NCBI GenBank assembly: GCA_026397015.1
Contig: JAPLVR010000002.1
Location: 1 to 50,917 of the forward strand
Length of the DNA: 50,917 bases
Source: Candidatus Iainarchaeum sp.
Lineage (GTDB): Archaea > Iainarchaeota > Iainarchaeia > Iainarchaeales > JAAZKV01
Direction: 5' to 3'
Under the pieces are notes generated by a model that saw nothing but the letters and a program-made list of their open reading frames with translations, did no database searches and was not told where the DNA came from. Below are positions 1,796 to 6,832 of this stretch, piece after piece; the stretch's first letter is position 1, and every line of letters starts with the position of its first letter. The position numbers and the translations under genes were made by a program.

Positions 1796-3454
1796 ATGCC
1801 TAATAATAAAGAACGCAATTTGTACAAAATTTGGTTTAAGGTGTTTGTTTTGTTCGACCCGAAATACGACGAGCCCAATTATAATCCCGGCGGCGGCTAT
1901 TATGGCGATGACCAGCCGCAGGGCAATTCCATTTCCGTCGGCCCAGTAGTCAATTTGCTCAAGAAGTATAAAATGCTTATTATTGTCGGGGTAATAGGAA
2001 TTATTGCAATTGCATTGATAATGAACTGGCTCAACTCAAATCAGGATGTTACGATAACCGTCAGGGAGCTTGACACGGGGACAAAAATAATTTCCAACAT
2101 ATCGGTAAAGGACGAGTCAGGAACAAAAACAATAAAAACTTTTGCGGCACAGGATTCTGCGACAATAAATCTTCCTTATGGAAAATACCTTTTGACTGTT
2201 TCAAGCACGAGTACAGGGACATATAATACAATCACCAATGAGCCTCTTATTGTTCCAATTGATTCAACTGATTTGGTCAAAAAAACAAAGTCTATAATAC
2301 TGCACAGGGACAGGACGGCGGATGTTAAAATTTATATGGATGTTTTGGATTTGTATGGAACAAGGGACATTAACGGAACGGTTGAAATCACAAACACCGG
2401 CAAAAAGGACATTGTAAATACAAATTTAAAGGTTGTAAACGAGGACGCGAGTATAAATGAAGGCGATTTGGAAGTTAATTTTGCAGAGCAGGGAAACAAA
2501 TTTCCTCTAACTGTTTATCAGGGGTCAAGCCAGTCGGTGGCCTTTACCGTAAAGATGAATAAGGCGGTTTCGGCCGAAAAAAAGGTTAAATTAATGGTGA
2601 AGCTTGAGGGCATGGAAGCTTCCACCGAGAGCGGGAAAAACGGTGCGGAAAAGGAGCTCACTGCAAATCCTGCCTCAACATTAACTGTAACAACTTCGAA
2701 TGCGGTAAGCGCCAGGGCGCTTGAGAAAAAAACGATTGACGTTAAAATATCGAATACTGGCAAGTATGACGCGGACGAAATTTCAGTTGAATTGGTTGCC
2801 CAGCCCGGTTCAGAGGGCATGATAGACTGGTTTAGATTCATTTCTCCGGCAAGCGGAAAAAACACTCTTCAGATTGTCGATTCGCTGGCCAAGGGAAAAA
2901 ACACCGGCAAGGCGGTGCAGCTTTATTTCAATCCTCCTGTCGAGGCGGAGCAGGGCGACGAATTTTTTGGAACGATAATTGTGAGTTCCCCTTCGATTGC
3001 AAGTTCGATAGAAGTCGGCGTCAAGTACACTGTAAGTGAATCTGTTAAGAGGACAATTACGCTGAACGGAATAAGCAGCCCCGTTGAGGTAAAGTTTGAC
3101 AGCAAGGAAAATAAATATAATATTCTTGACAAGAAAGATATCACTTTGAAGAATACCGGCAATGTGGATGTGGAAAATGTTGTTTTCGCGCTCGATGCCG
3201 GGGGTCAGACAAACTTTTCGTGTGCGAATTGGGTTAAAATATTGGAAGCTGATCCGACAACCGGCGAACTTACGTTTAGCGAAATAGTGAAGGGCGGCTC
3301 TTCCATTCCCTTTACCATAAGAATAGAGATTGATTCGGAAGCAACTGAAAATGATCCGGGCGTATGCCATTTTTACTGGTCTGGAAACATAAAGGGCGAG
3401 TTATCAGAATTTGTCGGCGGCGACGCGGTAATAACTATAATTCCGAGAGATTAA
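1796..3454 (+). CDS. Membrane-anchored surface protein with several Ig/CARDB-like beta domains
   Basis: One TM helix (MLIIVGVIGIIAIALIM) and repeated I/L-x-N-T-G motifs (EITNTGK, KISNTGK, TLKNTGN). True start may be near 1850. Confidence 0.7.
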   Translation: MPNNKERNLYKIWFKVFVLFDPKYDEPNYNPGGGYYGDDQPQGNSISVGPVVNLLKKYKMLIIVGVIGIIAIALIMNWLNSNQDVTITVRELDTGTKIISNISVKDESGTKTIKTFAAQDSATINLPYGKYLLTVSSTSTGTYNTITNEPLIVPIDSTDLVKKTKSIILHRDRTADVKIYMDVLDLYGTRDINGTVEITNTGKKDIVNTNLKVVNEDASINEGDLEVNFAEQGNKFPLTVYQGSSQSVAFTVKMNKAVSAEKKVKLMVKLEGMEASTESGKNGAEKELTANPASTLTVTTSNAVSARALEKKTIDVKISNTGKYDADEISVELVAQPGSEGMIDWFRFISPASGKNTLQIVDSLAKGKNTGKAVQLYFNPPVEAEQGDEFFGTIIVSSPSIASSIEVGVKYTVSESVKRTITLNGISSPVEVKFDSKENKYNILDKKDITLKNTGNVDVENVVFALDAGGQTNFSCANWVKILEADPTTGELTFSEIVKGGSSIPFTIRIEIDSEATENDPGVCHFYWSGNIKGELSEFVGGDAVITIIPRD

Positions 3455-3509
3455 GGCAAATAAATAGGTTAACGGTATATCGAATTATTTTAAGCCCCTG
3501 AGGATTTTA

Positions 3510-4925
3510 TTAATTTGTTATACTTTTTAGCAATTTATCGAGTATAGTGTCTTTTTTATGTTCTTCACGAGTTAGAACTTCCAGATTTGACAACTCATTA
3601 TTTCTTTTGGCGAAGTCTTTGTGATGGACCTCATAAGAAATCCAAGGAAGTCGGTATATGTTTCTGTTTTTGTTGTAGATAAACTTTTTAGCATACCAGC
3701 GGTGAAAATATTCACCTGGTTGTCCTGGATGATTTAAGTTTTTTGCGAATGTTTCATATCCTTCTTCATTAATTATTACTTTGTAACCTTGTTTATTTAG
3801 CCGTGGCATATTATTTTCTATCTCCAGATTCAGTCGTTCTTTTTCGTTTTGTATTCTTTCCTTCTTTAATAATTTTGTGCTTTCAGATATCGAATTTTTA
3901 TCGTTTTCCATTTGAATTAGTCTTTTTCCCATTTTTTGAATCGCAGTCTCTTCTTTCTTTTTTAATTTAGCTTCTAAATCAGATTCTTTTGCCCCATATT
4001 CAGAATCTAACTTAGTTAATTGTTTTCTTTTTTGTTTTATGCTATTCTTAAGTTTTTCCAGCTCAGCATTAAATTGTCTTTCTTTATGTAAATTTTGAGT
4101 TATTTCTAAATCAATTATTCGCGCTTTTTCTTTAAGAATTTTTAGGTTAGTTTCTGCAAATTTGTTTTGTTGTTCAGCTTTTTGTTTTTTGTTGTCTAAG
4201 TAAAATTTGGCTAAAACTATTGAAATTGTTATAATTAAAATAACAATTATCCCGGTGAATGTCAAGACTCCTTCTCGTTCAGCTTTTTGTTTGGCAATCA
4301 AAGCAGCTTGATTGTCAAGAACATCTTGTTTAATTTTTTCTGATTCAGTTGAGCAAATTTCTTTAACACAAAACCCACTGCCGCATAGTGAATCAGAAGT
4401 GCATGTTGCTCCATCATTTAAGCAGTTTGTATCGCTTCCAGATGGGCATTTTTTACAGGTTGTATTTGATATTAATTCATATTTTTGGTAAGTAAAATTA
4501 TTGTCAACAAAACTAAAGGAGATATCCTCATATCCTTCAAATCTACAATAAGATGAGTCGTAGGATGTGTTAAGTCTATAGTAATCTCGGGGGTTGATAG
4601 AAAACGTTTGTTCCCTTTGATATTTTATGCCACTACCAGAACATATGCTAGACGGTGTCAGCCACCATTTATATTGCATTCTTACAGTTAAAAGAAAATC
4701 GGTTTCATTGTGTGTGTCAAAAGAATTATCTAAAAAATTATTAATATTGATCGCGCTTGATGTTGCAGGGGGGTATAAAGTAGTGATTAATTCATTAGTG
4801 TCTAATGAATAGACATTTTGAAAAGTTTGTTCAGATGGAACGCTTATGGCATACTGACAATCTAAGGAATAAACAAAAGATAAAAATAATAAAGTTGTTG
4901 CCGCCAGAAAGAGGGCTTTTTTCAT
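3510..4925 (-). CDS. Membrane-anchored HNH endonuclease (signal peptide, Cys-rich ectodomain, TM, coiled coil, C-terminal HNH)
   Basis: Signal MKKALFLAATTLLFLSFVYS; Cys cluster CLNDGATCTSDSLCGSGFCVKEIC; TM FTGIIVILIITISIVLA; coiled coil; HRW...YEVHHKDFAKRNNELSNLEVLTREEH (HNH_3 type). Confidence 0.8.
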   Translation of the reverse strand: MKKALFLAATTLLFLSFVYSLDCQYAISVPSEQTFQNVYSLDTNELITTLYPPATSSAININNFLDNSFDTHNETDFLLTVRMQYKWWLTPSSICSGSGIKYQREQTFSINPRDYYRLNTSYDSSYCRFEGYEDISFSFVDNNFTYQKYELISNTTCKKCPSGSDTNCLNDGATCTSDSLCGSGFCVKEICSTESEKIKQDVLDNQAALIAKQKAEREGVLTFTGIIVILIITISIVLAKFYLDNKKQKAEQQNKFAETNLKILKEKARIIDLEITQNLHKERQFNAELEKLKNSIKQKRKQLTKLDSEYGAKESDLEAKLKKKEETAIQKMGKRLIQMENDKNSISESTKLLKKERIQNEKERLNLEIENNMPRLNKQGYKVIINEEGYETFAKNLNHPGQPGEYFHRWYAKKFIYNKNRNIYRLPWISYEVHHKDFAKRNNELSNLEVLTREEHKKDTILDKLLKSITN

Positions 4926-5061
4926 AATACCATCAAGTTAATTTCTGCTTTTAATTGTTGTCATTTTACTTATTTTTTGATATTACTCGTTTAACAAACT
5001 GTTTCCAGAATTTGAGGGCATTGCTTCCTCAAGTATTTTGGGAATATAACAACTTACTAAA

Positions 5062-5227
5062 AGCCCCTGGAGGGAATCGAACCCTCGACATACTGCTAGT
5101 TCTCGCTTTTTTTAATTTTATCCCGAATTAATGAAAGTTTTTTTTCTTTGGGATAACGTAACACTTTCTTTTTCTAAAAGAAAGGGTCCGTTACGAAGCA
5201 GTTGCTCTACCGCTGAGCCACAGGGGC
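5062..5227 (-). tRNA. tRNA-Thr(CGT) with 94-nt intron at 37/38 (intron 5098-5191)
   Basis: 5' exon GCCCCTGTGGCTCAGCGGTAGAGCAACTGCTTCGTA (5227-5192); 3' exon AGCAGTATGTCGAGGGTTCGATTCCCTCCAGGGGCT (5097-5062); acceptor, D, anticodon and T stems all pair. Confidence 0.85.
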
Positions 5228-5317: not shown

Positions 5318-6832
5318 ATGAAGAATGGGGCGCGTGAGGGTTTCCAGTTCGAGTTGGCGACTTACCTCGCGGACCAGGACTTCGTTTACGGTCCGGAGCC
5401 CGAGCTCTACACCCCGATAGCGGGTTTTTATTCTTACGGTTTGCTCGGAAAGGCCTTGAAGAACAAAGTAGAAGATAAGGTAAGAAAAGTTTTTGTGGAG
5501 CACGGTTTTTTCGAAGTAGAGTTTCCTCTTATAAGCCCTGAAATTATTTGGAAGGCTTCCGGCCATTTGGACGGTTTTAATGATTCCGTTATTTCCTGTT
5601 CAAAATGCAAATCATCTTTTCGCGCCGATAAATTGATTGAGGAGGAAACTGGAAAGGAAATTGCGGGCGCAAAAGACGAGGATTTGCTCGCCGCAATAAA
5701 AAGGAATGAAATCAAGTGCCCGAATTGCAAAGGAAGGCTGGAGTGGGAAATCACCAGGCACAGCCTGATGATGAAAACAATTATCGGCAGGGACATAGTT
5801 GTGTACAACAGGCCTGAGACCGCTACTACTACTTATCTTCCGTTCAAGCGCTACGTGCAATTCTTCAGGGGAAAACTTCCTTTCACGGTTTTTCAGATTG
5901 GAAAGGCTTTTAGGAATGAAATAAGCCCGAGGCAGCACCTGCTGAGGATGAGGGAATTTACCCAAGCAGAGGCGCAGATTTTTATCAGCAAGGATCAGAA
6001 GCAAAACTTTCCTCCTTTCAAAGAGGTCGAGAATGATTTGCTGCCTCTCTGGTCCGAGCAGCTTCAAAAATCGGACAAGGCTCCTGAATCGGTTTCGCTA
6101 AAGAATGCCTTGAAAAATAATTATTTGAAGAATCAGGCGTATGCGTGGGCCCTTCTCCTGGCATACAAAGTTTTTTTGGAGATGGGAATTCCAAAAGAAA
6201 AAATGAGGTTCAGGCAGCATCACAGCAATGAACGCGCTTTTTATGCGGATGACGCATGGGATTTGGAAATTGAATTGAATTCTTTCGGGTGGACGGAGTG
6301 TTGCGGCGTTCATGACAGAACAACCTATGACCTTTCCCAGCACGCGAAGTTTTCGAAACAAAAGCTTGTTGTCAGAACTGAAGACGGAAAAGAAATCGTT
6401 CCGGATGTGATTGAAATCGCTTTCGGTGTCGACAGGCCTTTTTATGCGCTTCTCGACCTCGCGTTTTTCAAAAGAAAGGATGATGATAAGAGAACTGTTC
6501 TTTCGTTGCCGCCCAGCATGGCGCCTGTAGATGTTGGTGTTTTTCCGCTGATTAAGAAAGACGGTCTGCCCGAGAAGGCGAAAGAGGTTTTGCAGGCATT
6601 AAAGGGCAGCGGCATAAGGACTTATTATGATGATTCCGGAAGTATCGGGAAGCGCTATTCGCGCCTCGACGCGGGTGGAATCCCTTTCTGCGTTACAATC
6701 GATCACGATACGTTGAAGGACAACGCAGTTACGATAAGGGAGCGCGATTCTTTGAAGCAGACAAGAGTGAAAATAAAGGATTTGCGCGGCACGCTTGAAA
6801 AATTTTTGGAAAAGGGGTTTTCGGAAAAATAA
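5318..6832 (+). CDS. glyS: Glycine--tRNA ligase (archaeal/eukaryotic alpha2 type)
   Basis: WKASGH, RPETA, FRNEISPRQ.LLRMREFTQAEAQ, GSIGKRYSR.D motifs. Confidence 0.96.
   Translation: MKNGAREGFQFELATYLADQDFVYGPEPELYTPIAGFYSYGLLGKALKNKVEDKVRKVFVEHGFFEVEFPLISPEIIWKASGHLDGFNDSVISCSKCKSSFRADKLIEEETGKEIAGAKDEDLLAAIKRNEIKCPNCKGRLEWEITRHSLMMKTIIGRDIVVYNRPETATTTYLPFKRYVQFFRGKLPFTVFQIGKAFRNEISPRQHLLRMREFTQAEAQIFISKDQKQNFPPFKEVENDLLPLWSEQLQKSDKAPESVSLKNALKNNYLKNQAYAWALLLAYKVFLEMGIPKEKMRFRQHHSNERAFYADDAWDLEIELNSFGWTECCGVHDRTTYDLSQHAKFSKQKLVVRTEDGKEIVPDVIEIAFGVDRPFYALLDLAFFKRKDDDKRTVLSLPPSMAPVDVGVFPLIKKDGLPEKAKEVLQALKGSGIRTYYDDSGSIGKRYSRLDAGGIPFCVTIDHDTLKDNAVTIRERDSLKQTRVKIKDLRGTLEKFLEKGFSEK

Follow-up and report, generated by a model that had tools for sequence, protein, structure and literature searches.

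A putative membrane-tethered HNH_3 nuclease encoded in a tRNA-associated islet of a Candidatus Iainarchaeum genome

The gene at positions 3510-4925 codes for a predicted type-I membrane protein of 471 residues, in which a disulfide-rich ectodomain is joined through one transmembrane (TM) helix and a long helical linker to a C-terminal HNH_3 nuclease domain. It was analysed within a window of 50,917 nt (the whole stretch of DNA under study) and appears to have been acquired horizontally as a single-gene islet at the 3' end of a tRNA-Thr gene. The best reading is, in our view, that of a membrane-held nuclease which cuts incoming foreign DNA; we put this forward tentatively, at somewhat less than an even chance. 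The layout agrees with the initial annotation, which had described a signal peptide, an ectodomain, one TM helix, a helical linker and, at the C-terminus, an HNH_3 domain. The gene and its parts are as follows.

3510-4925, minus strand: whole gene, 471 aa, predicted type-I membrane protein whose HNH_3 nuclease lies in the cytoplasm
4948-4955, minus strand: TATA-like box ATTAAAAG, about 30 nt upstream of the ATG
4866-4925, minus strand: signal peptide, residues 1-20
4461-4865, minus strand: N-terminal ectodomain, residues 21-155, all-beta Ig-like sandwich in the AF2 model
4350-4460, minus strand: disulfide-rich knot, residues 156-192, with C157, C160, C168, C175, C181, C186 and C191
4191-4265, minus strand: single TM helix, residues ~221-245
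3810-4190, minus strand: cytoplasmic helical (coiled-coil-like) linker, residues 246-372, from the AF2 model
3513-3809, minus strand: HNH_3 nuclease domain, residues 373-471, with H408, H434-H435, N442-N443, N447 and H456

The gene is a single open reading frame (0 internal stops) and gives the only HNH_3 match in the genome of 898,628 bases (Pfam profile scan; 29.5 bits). One contig from a sequencing run spans the whole stretch with 0 differences; this run is a possible source of the assembly and hence does not count as independent support. Three short contigs from a second study are identical to the stretch. Two short contigs from RNA libraries overlap the gene, which does not in itself demonstrate transcription. 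The box ATTAAAAG, read from the sequence, is probably the promoter of a leaderless or short-leader mRNA.

An exhaustive search returned 326 relatives. The layout was compared in 55 hand-picked representatives, the members referred to below, and all of them share it, so that the fusion of ectodomain, TM helix and HNH domain first read from one gene is common to its homologs. Judged by sequence, this is not a one-off fusion but a sizeable, undescribed family with this layout.

The N-terminal hydrophobic segment begins at residue 3 and ends at about residues 20-23 (Kyte-Doolittle); residues 2-19 form a helix in the AF2 model. It is followed by S|LDCQY, and the motif A/S-L-x-C-Q-Y is conserved after the signal peptide (C23, Q24 and Y25 in at least 90% of the 55 members). 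The ectodomain covers 195 residues (21-215), close to the originally proposed 190 or so, and carries its disulfide-rich module at the end, as had been described. It holds all 10 cysteines of the protein, seven of them within residues 157-191, along with four N-x-S/T sequons and a net charge of -9. Its AF2 model (alignment A3) has nine strands, a mean pLDDT of 86.6 and a pTM of 0.72. Residues 21-205 had no match in Pfam, NCBIfam or PDB sequences, and the ectodomain had no Foldseek match in the PDB at E<=1e-3. A wide comparison with VIA-align returned generic sandwiches only (best Z 6.8, within the beta-sandwich background). When the full-length model was compared with the PDB by Foldseek, it likewise retrieved beta-sandwich entries only, the small HNH domain being missed. 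The matches are to a generic Ig-like fold only, and the model points to an Ig-like sandwich of no known family.

The sandwich is, together with the linker, the least conserved part of the protein (mean pairwise identity of 20% in the family alignment). The knot, with the motif CxxC..C.NDG..C....CGSG.C, reaches 46%; C157, C181 and C191 are invariant in the 55 members, and C160, C168, D171 and G182 occur in at least 90% of them. Relatives have ectodomains of up to ~450 aa. The "CQY" sandwich and the cysteine knot would be an undescribed extracellular domain, modelled confidently by AlphaFold and assigned to no Pfam family.

The single TM helix has a Kyte-Doolittle maximum of 2.89 and is flanked by four K/R in the 15 residues after it, compared to two before. 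The coiled coil of about 130 residues proposed earlier corresponds to a linker of ~127 residues between TM helix and nuclease, for which AF2 predicts continuous helices (223-310, which includes the TM helix, and 316-371; pLDDT ~85-93) with a break at 311-315. These helices may fold back into a hairpin, which would bring the nuclease close to the membrane, or run on as one extended rod. The linker has 32 K+R, 23 D+E and no cysteine. Residues 246-471 as a whole have neither cysteines nor sequons and a net charge of +15. Across the 55 members, 1033 cysteines occur in 14,300 ectodomain residues versus 18 in 10,412 cytoplasmic residues (~40-fold enrichment outside), and the positive-inside rule (more K+R after the TM helix than before) is obeyed by 47. 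Both observations indicate that the nuclease faces the cytoplasm. The topology, which is based on hydrophobicity, charge and cysteine distribution, thus agrees with the earlier prediction in the 471-aa protein as well as in the family. A homodimer model of two copies of residues 220-471 (alignment A2), run without controls, scored 0.00 against a mark of 0.42, which is uninformative either way.

The C-terminal domain matches Pfam HNH_3 (PF13392) at residues 426-457 with 27.4 bits, above the cut-off of 24.8 (E 2.6e-6); PHROG HNH families also match (best E 9e-8). H408, H435, N447, L448 and H456 are invariant in the 55 members, and mean identity in the HNH domain is 42%, compared to 20-21% for sandwich and linker. 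We take H435, N447 and H456 to be the general base His, the structural Asn and the metal-binding His/Asn, respectively. The beta-beta-alpha-metal fold is seen in the AF2 model (strands 431-435 and 448-452, helix 453-470; pLDDT 94-98). In a viral library, Foldseek found phage HNH endonucleases over 87-88 columns (rmsd 2.9-3.2 A, prob 1.00), one of them superposed over 87 columns with rmsd 2.9 A and 28% identity (E 1.3e-2); E values reach just ~1e-2, as the search used the complete 471-aa model. The family profile matches the homing endonuclease I-HmuI (1U3E) with E 3e-4 across the HR..., (D/H)HKDGNK.NN and NL motifs, the region of H435, N447 and H456 aligning with DHKDGNKDNN...NL. Single-sequence PDB searches with tail and ectodomain separately gave nothing significant. 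With a score above the Pfam cut-off and catalytic residues present and invariant, the domain appears as intact as the initial annotation had it, and it is probably an active DNA-cutting nuclease.

The ectodomain is also found with other tails. In the phylum, 10 of 215 genomes contain ORFs that bear it. Four of these 10 genomes have the HNH tail, and in the other six the ectodomain is nuclease-free, with K-rich or coiled-coil tails. Very basic, K-rich tails were found in four genomes (G119, G120, G121 and G124). Only a coiled coil follows the ectodomain in genome G163, in one G031 copy and in P0148, while the other G031 copy has almost no tail. J-domain-like tails occur as well. The P0012 tail is Cys4 HNH-like (weak Pfam match, E 1.8e-3); that of P0010 resembles PD-(D/E)xK by motif (..RPDFYL...IEYWG) and has no match in Pfam, NCBIfam or PDB. 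This census is biased towards HNH because the query of the main search included the HNH domain, and it stays so after a search with an ectodomain-only profile (A4), which found one protein in the 715-2040 aa range and five in the near range but used a word index that is too insensitive. Among short (<250 aa) relatives of the HNH domain, 37 of 78 have a hydrophobic anchor, mostly with the HNH domain at the N-terminus and TM helices at the C-terminal end; in this HNH clade, tethering to the membrane thus appears repeatedly, with other anchors. The protein is full length in one of 37 metagenome contig loci (L063). In viral contigs, all 22 matching loci correspond to the HNH core alone (residues ~398-466); the ectodomain was not found in them, and there is no sign of a virus-borne receptor form.

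The occurrence of the same ectodomain without a nuclease suggests that it has a role of its own and that the nuclease is one add-on among several. The ectodomain might accordingly be the core of the protein, a surface adhesin or structural component, with a tail that only ties it to DNA or to the nucleoid, or that is a selfish HNH domain of recent capture and no cellular role. The K-rich, coiled-coil-only and nearly absent tails are in favour of this, as is the frequency of HNH_3 in mobile homing endonucleases. However, His/Asn/His are invariant in 55 members diverged to 42% identity, which argues for selection on catalysis rather than mere DNA binding or decay. Moreover, no homing-type DNA-recognition module follows the HNH core, after which most members have just 15-36 residues; in the 471-aa protein, the Pfam scan revealed no further domain there. 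We consider this explanation quite unlikely.

Exchangeable tails on a constant N-terminus (HNH_3, the Cys4 HNH-like tail of P0012 and the possible PD-(D/E)xK of P0010) would also fit an exported nuclease resembling polymorphic toxins, with a constant N-terminal part for delivery and swappable C-terminal toxins directed at competitors. This is highly improbable, since every one of the 55 aligned members has a stop-transfer TM helix ahead of its tail, the tail has the basic, Cys-poor composition of cytoplasmic segments, and the J-domain-like and K-rich tails are not toxins. Neither an adjacent immunity gene nor a C-terminal export route was found at the locus or across the family loci examined. 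The downstream neighbour is a conserved surface-protein gene in convergent orientation, which argues against an immunity-type gene, and the window and the loci L010, L011 and L012 have no neighbour in common that could be a conserved partner or immunity gene.

Another explanation is a true receptor-nuclease for abortive infection or suicide. Its ectodomain would bind a ligand or a virus, which would lead to oligomerisation via TM helix and coiled coil, and the HNH domains thereby switched on would cut the cell's own or any DNA. A similar logic is known from IRE1, which combines a lumenal sensor, a TM helix and a cytosolic nuclease. The single-pass layout, with a long helical linker in nearly all members (median 111 aa, range 22-200), is consistent with such a receptor, and so are the variable outer sandwich above a conserved nuclease and the patchy accessory distribution. 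Yet in member P0006 the TM-to-HNH spacing is only ~22 residues, so that at least one member can do without the linker, and the Pfam scan revealed no HAMP, PAS or other known signalling module. Given the short spacing in P0006 and the nuclease-free ectodomains, a receptor with DNA cleavage as its output is a hypothetical assignment, and we regard the suicide form of it as unlikely. A broader proposal would be a new archaeal class of single-pass receptors with swappable DNA-acting tails and a hypervariable Ig-like bait or decoy. On binding, the receptors would cluster and the nuclease would be triggered at the very place where foreign DNA comes in. The tails would be HNH_3, Cys4 HNH-like, possibly PD-(D/E)xK, or basic, and viruses or foreign cells would bind the bait. 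If true, this would be a "booby-trapped receptor", a prokaryotic counterpart of the IRE1-type receptor-nucleases, but we give it a low probability.

The genomic setting of the gene is defined by the following features.

3505-5060, no strand: low-GC islet of ~1.57 kb, which holds only the HNH gene
5062-5227, minus strand: tRNA-Thr(CGU) with a 94-nt intron at 37/38 (Rfam RF00005, 54.8 bits)
5061-5075, plus strand: proximal repeat copy AAGCCCCTGGAGGGA, the 3' acceptor/T-arm end of the tRNA-Thr, from the three-way alignment
3492-3504, plus strand: distal copy of the tRNA 3' end AAGCCCCTGAGGA (repeat family D2), an att-like remnant

The HNH gene starts 137 nt 3' of the tRNA-Thr gene, the intron of which is non-coding; ARAGORN detects this tRNA only with its intron search, the default run missing it. 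In 200-nt windows, GC is 25-35% within the islet versus 40-50% on either side, and the gene has a GC of 31.1% (GC3 24.4%) compared to 42.4% for the genome. Copies of 13-15 nt of the tRNA 3' end border the islet, the distal one, AAGCCCCTGAGGA, being located at the far islet end, 38 nt after the stop codon of the neighbouring surface-protein gene. The tRNA-Thr region is 86% identical over 205 nt in a genome of the same genus (G001), and the islet is missing from the syntenic slot of that genome. In the three-way alignment, the intact tRNA 3' end of G001 sits at the position of the distal repeat, beside the same gene. In a second member (G040), the gene follows another intron-bearing tRNA at a distance of 57 nt on its 3' side. 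These data indicate horizontal acquisition of the gene as a single-gene islet at the tRNA-Thr 3' end, a clean case of tRNA-targeted single-gene acquisition in a genome of 0.9 Mb. A defence island was considered and rejected, the neighbours being GlyRS, Nop5-like, fibrillarin-like and other housekeeping genes. PADLOC gave no defence-family match, only weak "homing endonuclease" matches (E 3e-3 to 8e-3). The variable slot also contains surface proteins in relatives, such as a Laminin_G_3 protein in G001.

The content of this slot would also suit a protein by which an episymbiotic DPANN archaeon interacts with its host, binding to its cell surface and degrading host DNA that comes in at the site of contact, for nucleotide salvage. 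Absence of nucleotide synthesis is known from DPANN archaea. The small genome, the related loci in Woesearchaeota and Nanoarchaeota MAGs and a cysteine-rich Ig-like ectodomain typical of adhesins are in line with such scavenging. A nutritional role should, however, be widespread, whereas the HNH-tailed form is confined to the four genomes of the phylum mentioned above and does not occur in the same-genus genome; the gene has also been recently acquired. We therefore think scavenging improbable.

For the initial annotation, three options were a defence device sensing contact or viruses, a suicide device, and a membrane-tethered nuclease for incoming DNA. The last of these suits an accessory, horizontally acquired single-gene locus best. 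Under the favoured reading of position-based cutting, the signal peptide would be cleaved, and the disulfide-bonded Ig-like sandwich and cysteine knot would lie outside the cell, while TM helix and long helical linker would hold the HNH_3 domain at the inner face of the membrane. The tether would keep the nuclease off most of the chromosome, and the nuclease would cut such DNA as crosses the membrane, be it viral or otherwise mobile. The variable ectodomain may place the nuclease at DNA entry sites or join such sites. The protein would then be a one-gene device for defence or exclusion that acts by position. What we infer here is nuclease activity, DNA as its target, the ectodomain's role and regulation, if any.

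DPANN cells are tiny, and a tether of up to ~19 nm (calculated for 127 residues in one helix) may not clear the nucleoid. We know of no virus and no DNA entry mechanism for these archaea. The housekeeping neighbours, the nuclease-free ectodomains and the PADLOC result are further counter-points to a defence function. According to one report, DPANN archaea are poor in CRISPR-Cas and restriction-modification and depend on compact single-gene systems instead (PMC12988326). A defence nuclease that is anchored in the membrane and located in the cytoplasm has, as a principle, an experimental precedent in the E. coli system SNIPE. If position-based cutting is true, discrimination of self from non-self by the location of DNA would extend from this one system to archaea, here based on a nuclease unrelated to that of SNIPE and on a large extracellular domain. 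From the ectodomain one could then learn what is recognised outside the cell, and the swapped ectodomains and tails of the family would form a natural series for studying this.

Among known systems, Zorya has a membrane complex (ZorAB) with a long cytoplasmic coiled-coil tail and, in type II, the HNH protein ZorE. The concept is alike, namely a sensor embedded in the membrane, a long coiled coil reaching into the cytoplasm, and a nuclease that attacks invading DNA locally. Zorya is, however, a multi-gene system with a MotAB-like proton channel, whereas the 471-aa protein is one polypeptide with one TM helix. MotAB-like ZorA/ZorB proteins were not found, and there are no candidates among the neighbours; a PADLOC match to ZorB over TM helix and coil (E 0.11) is at chance level. 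The EndA/NucA-type competence nucleases are membrane-anchored and face outward. They resemble our case as anchored beta-beta-alpha-metal nucleases acting on DNA in transit, but here the nuclease is predicted to be inside by all indicators.

The catalytic domain is like that of the phage HNH homing endonucleases of the I-HmuI type. I-HmuI has C-terminal DNA-recognition modules, whereas none follows the HNH core of the 471-aa protein, which ends ~36 residues past H435. The third metal ligand is H456 here, where I-HmuI aligns a non-His residue. In addition, the domain is membrane-tethered in our protein, unlike the I-HmuI type, and is not located inside an intron or intein.

The initial annotation had stated that no characterised system has this architecture. 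This holds for the layout as a whole, for which we found none in the literature searched, but not for the principle, for which SNIPE (PD-lambda-1) is a precedent. As described in its report, SNIPE spans the membrane once and carries its nuclease on the cytoplasmic side; it cuts phage DNA as this is being injected, becomes toxic once its TM helix is removed, and has homologues in which the nuclease shows the strongest conservation and the N-terminal region the weakest (PMC13190303). Both systems are specified by a single gene with one TM helix, a cytoplasmic nuclease (in our case predicted from sequence) and an accessory distribution, and in both the nuclease is best conserved while the extracytoplasmic or N-terminal part is most variable in sequence and length (PMC13190303). 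SNIPE itself is described there as having a short periplasmic N-terminus, a DUF4041 domain binding DNA and the tape-measure protein, and a nuclease of the GIY-YIG type (PMC13190303). The 471-aa protein differs in its predicted cleaved signal peptide, disulfide-rich ectodomain, helical linker and HNH_3 domain, and it is archaeal rather than bacterial. DUF4041 and GIY-YIG were absent from its Pfam scan at E<=1, which gave only HNH_3 and chance-level coil matches. The protein is thus, as far as the sequence comparison goes, not a member of SNIPE and has no sequence relationship to it, but is like SNIPE in principle.

The gene at positions 3510-4925 (minus strand) is a single open reading frame coding for 471 aa, and the initial annotation of this feature holds at these positions. 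The encoded protein is organized as follows:

Residues 1-20: hydrophobic signal sequence, followed by a conserved 'LDCQY' start
Ectodomain segment, 195 aa: all 10 cysteines of the protein (C23, C95, C127, C157, C160, C168, C175, C181, C186, C191), four N-x-S/T sequons, net charge -9
Residues ~221-245: single, strongly hydrophobic transmembrane (TM) helix
C-terminal segment, 226 aa: no cysteine, no sequon, net charge +15
Residues 426-457: Pfam HNH_3, 27.4 bits (cut-off 24.8)

HNH-endonuclease families from PHROG match the protein with E-values down to 9e-8, while scans returned no meaningful match in NCBIfam and only weak 'homing endonuclease' rows in PADLOC. It is the sole HNH_3 match in its genome (898,628 bases, 6 contigs, 85% complete), of which the window represents the entire contig C2. 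The neighbours of the gene are archaeal housekeeping genes.

Four relatives with the parts in identical order were retrieved by a word-index search. An exhaustive search of 1.84 billion representatives yielded 326 proteins at E<=1e-3 (31 at E<=1e-10); the best 150 of these, together with P0002 from the word-index search, make up a set of 151 proteins, 73 of them with at least 250 aa. HNH_3 was detected by Pfam at E<=1e-3 in 62 of the 72 long relatives (at least 250 aa, query excluded, among the matches listed). For the alignment, 55 of the 73 proteins were chosen, which have an N-terminal hydrophobic or ectodomain part, an internal TM helix, and an HNH tail. The 18 others are fragments (three proteins: P0005, P0007, P0044) or have other tails or layouts (P0010, P0012, P0015, P0034, P0052, P0058, P0064, P0067, P0078, P0090, P0097, P0123, P0137, P0139, P0148).

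Eight residues are invariant in all 55 members (C157, C181, C191, H408, H435, N447, L448, H456). Pairwise identity averages 20% in the N-terminal sandwich, 46% in the disulfide knot, 21% in the linker (median 111 aa, range 22-200), and 42% in the HNH domain. Cysteines account for 1033 of 14,300 residues outside but for only 18 of 10,412 inside, and K+R is higher after than before the TM helix in 47 members (equal in 3, lower in 5). Such a cysteine split and charge bias are the marks expected of an extracellular N-terminal and a cytoplasmic C-terminal part, and agree with the cytoplasmic nuclease that had been predicted initially. The fusion, also proposed at that stage, is backed by the 326 relatives and by the common layout of the 55 aligned members, so that the architecture is that of a family rather than an accidental fusion. 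As judged from sequence, the protein is surface-exposed and single-pass, with an intact and selected HNH nuclease domain at its predicted cytoplasmic end; that it is an exported toxin is the least likely of the readings considered.

The ectodomain (residues 21-205) was modelled confidently by AlphaFold2 (60-row alignment, mean pLDDT 86.6, pTM 0.72) as a beta sandwich of nine strands with a small disulfide knot after it. Because Foldseek found no match in the PDB at E<=1e-3 and an independent search ranked various unrelated Ig-like sandwiches about equally (top Z 6.8, rated background), the modelled ectodomain would be of a common fold type without an identifiable family. In the full-length model (55-row alignment, mean pLDDT 87.2), the TM helix runs on into the cytoplasm (223-310) and, after a break (311-315), a second helix follows (316-371). 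The nuclease is modelled with strands 431-435 and 448-452 and helix 453-470 (pLDDT 94-98), which corresponds to a predicted beta-beta-alpha-metal arrangement. The family profile matches the HNH homing endonuclease I-HmuI (1U3E; E 3e-4) with the motifs 'HR', '(D/H)HKDGNK.NN', and 'NL' in register. Phage HNH endonucleases from a viral structure library superpose on the full-length model over 87-88 columns (rmsd 2.9-3.2 A, prob 1.00; E ~1e-2 with the whole-length query).

The gene occupies a low-GC islet of 1.57 kb at a tRNA gene. The relevant features are:

3492-3504: 13-nt copy of the tRNA 3' end (AAGCCCCTGAGGA), exactly where the same-genus genome G001 has its tRNA end
From 5061: intact tRNA sequence (AAGCCCCTGGAGGGA...), 1.57 kb from the copy, on the far side of the query gene
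5062-5227, minus strand: tRNA-Thr(CGU) just upstream of the query gene, with a 94-nt intron at 37/38 (Rfam 54.8 bits)
G001 contig C2 (locus L007), 5375-6673, plus strand: secreted, Cys-rich protein of 432 aa; Laminin_G_3 (E 8e-21) and metal-binding motif of the MopE type

The tRNA gene was missed by ARAGORN with default settings and detected when the intron search was switched on; the intron is kept in the G001 orthologue. The query gene has a GC content of 31.1% (GC3 24.4%), compared to 42.4% for the genome and to 42.6% and 45.8% for the flanking genes (GC3 46% and 53%), and GC falls abruptly at both islet ends. The query gene is absent from G001 (88% complete), where the flanking genes are kept and the tRNA 3' end directly adjoins the surface-protein gene. 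Since its position is in register with that of G001, the 13-nt copy is read as an att-like duplication; an exact 9-nt repeat is, by our estimate, the chance expectation in 1.9 kb. No integrase is encoded within the 1.57-kb islet. We conclude that the query gene is an accessory, mobile, single-gene islet which was horizontally acquired.

The G001 Laminin_G_3 protein lies on the opposite side of the tRNA, between the genes for GlyRS and the surface protein, and both sides of tRNA-Thr are hot spots for surface-protein genes. In another genome (G003), the variable slot holds two unrelated small membrane proteins. The surface protein (window 1796-3454, plus strand, 552 aa) is membrane-anchored with a cytoplasmic N-terminus, one TM helix, a large extracellular part, and a weak CARDB match (E 9e-3). 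It is kept in relatives but diverges fast: between the window and G001, identity is 44%, compared to 91% for GlyRS and 86% over 205 nt for the tRNA. A family member in G040 (26% identical) is located 57 nt 3' of another tRNA gene (158 nt, with an intron). The HNH-tailed copy in G152 (L029, contig C9, 775-1980) has 33.0% GC against 44.8% in its flanks, which points to more than one horizontal acquisition in the family.

The query protein has matches in 3 of 61 genomes (its own and 60 relatives). With the family profile (E<=1e-8), 30 of 215 phylum genomes are positive, the majority through small free HNH genes. Ectodomain ORFs occur in 10 of the 215 (G000, G031 with two copies, G040, G082, G119, G120, G121, G124, G152, G163), and four of these have the HNH tail (G000, which is the query's own genome, G040, G082, G152). 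Related loci stem from MAGs labelled Woesearchaeota and Nanoarchaeota, and from one labelled Methanosarcinales. The latter (L012; 137-kb contig, locus ~30% GC) codes for a full-length 630-aa member; either its bin is mislabelled or the family extends beyond DPANN.

The same ectodomain is found with other tails: a Cys4 HNH-like tail in P0012 (weak Pfam AI2M-like_HNH, E 1.8e-3), a putative PD-(D/E)xK-like tail in P0010, and, after the TM helix, a J-domain-like segment in P0034 and P0137 (NCBIfam DjlA E 1.8e-7, Pfam DnaJ E 1.8e-4, both below cut-off). The latter has 'HRD' in place of HPD. Further tails in the representative genomes of the phylum are K-rich and very basic, coiled coil only, or nearly missing. 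The share of HNH tails among ectodomain proteins is inflated because the search query contained the HNH domain, an ectodomain-only census being too insensitive. Conversely, P0090, P0097, P0139, and P0095 have the same HNH subtype ahead of TM helices and another C-terminal part, and 37 of 78 relatives below 250 aa (among the matches listed) have a hydrophobic segment, so that tethering to the membrane recurs in this HNH clade. In these short proteins (P0027, P0046, P0056, P0068, P0074, P0088, and others), the usual order is an N-terminal HNH domain and then C-terminal TM helices, which suggests a clade of tail-anchored HNH proteins. At the C-terminus of P0027 and P0068 there is a motif with cysteine, 'DIH.LDG..DG.PCE', which may be Excalibur-like. 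By sequence comparison, the parts prove exchangeable on both sides of the membrane.

No neighbour is common to the window and the related loci L010, L011, and L012. The close relatives L012 (4031-5944) and L063 (5999-7637) share a neighbour pair in differing gene order: a membrane-anchored wHTH-type protein (signal peptide/TM; in L012 with a cytoplasmic winged helix of the MarR/DUF7343 type) and a surface protein with 56% identity between L012 and L063. A search with these genes found neither in the query's own genome. The HNH gene and its downstream neighbour are convergent, and thus there is no immunity-type partner.

A 21,405-base contig spans 3300-5400 without differences, but it does not count as independent support, its run being a possible source of the DNA. 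Three contigs of 151-294 bases from a run of a second study lie within 3327-4059 and are identical. In two RNA-library runs from a third study, the matching contigs cover 3880-4123 (243 bases, one 1-base gap) and 4058-4208 (151 bases, identical); they are no proof of transcription.

The protein may, by analogy, act as an entry-site nuclease against incoming foreign DNA, a reading which we hold tentatively, at somewhat below even chances. Nuclease-free ectodomain forms, which are at least as common (6 of 10 representative genomes), argue against it, as do zero defence-library matches and a location outside any defence island; sequestration by tethering is also less convincing in cells this tiny. 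The remaining probability is shared by an adhesin with an incidental DNA-binding tail, a ligand-triggered suicide receptor, and scavenging of DNA upon host contact.

We found no description of this architecture in the full-text literature open to searching; by term search, the words HNH and transmembrane are absent from a 2026 survey of archaeal immunity. For the E. coli system SNIPE (PD-lambda-1), a membrane anchor is reported to sequester the cytoplasmic nuclease, which cuts phage DNA during injection, while the extracytoplasmic, N-terminal part diversifies (PMC13190303). The query protein has a different nuclease and is devoid of DUF4041, and thus is not a member of SNIPE. As a principle, entry-site cleavage as described for SNIPE is the best-fitting one among those known.
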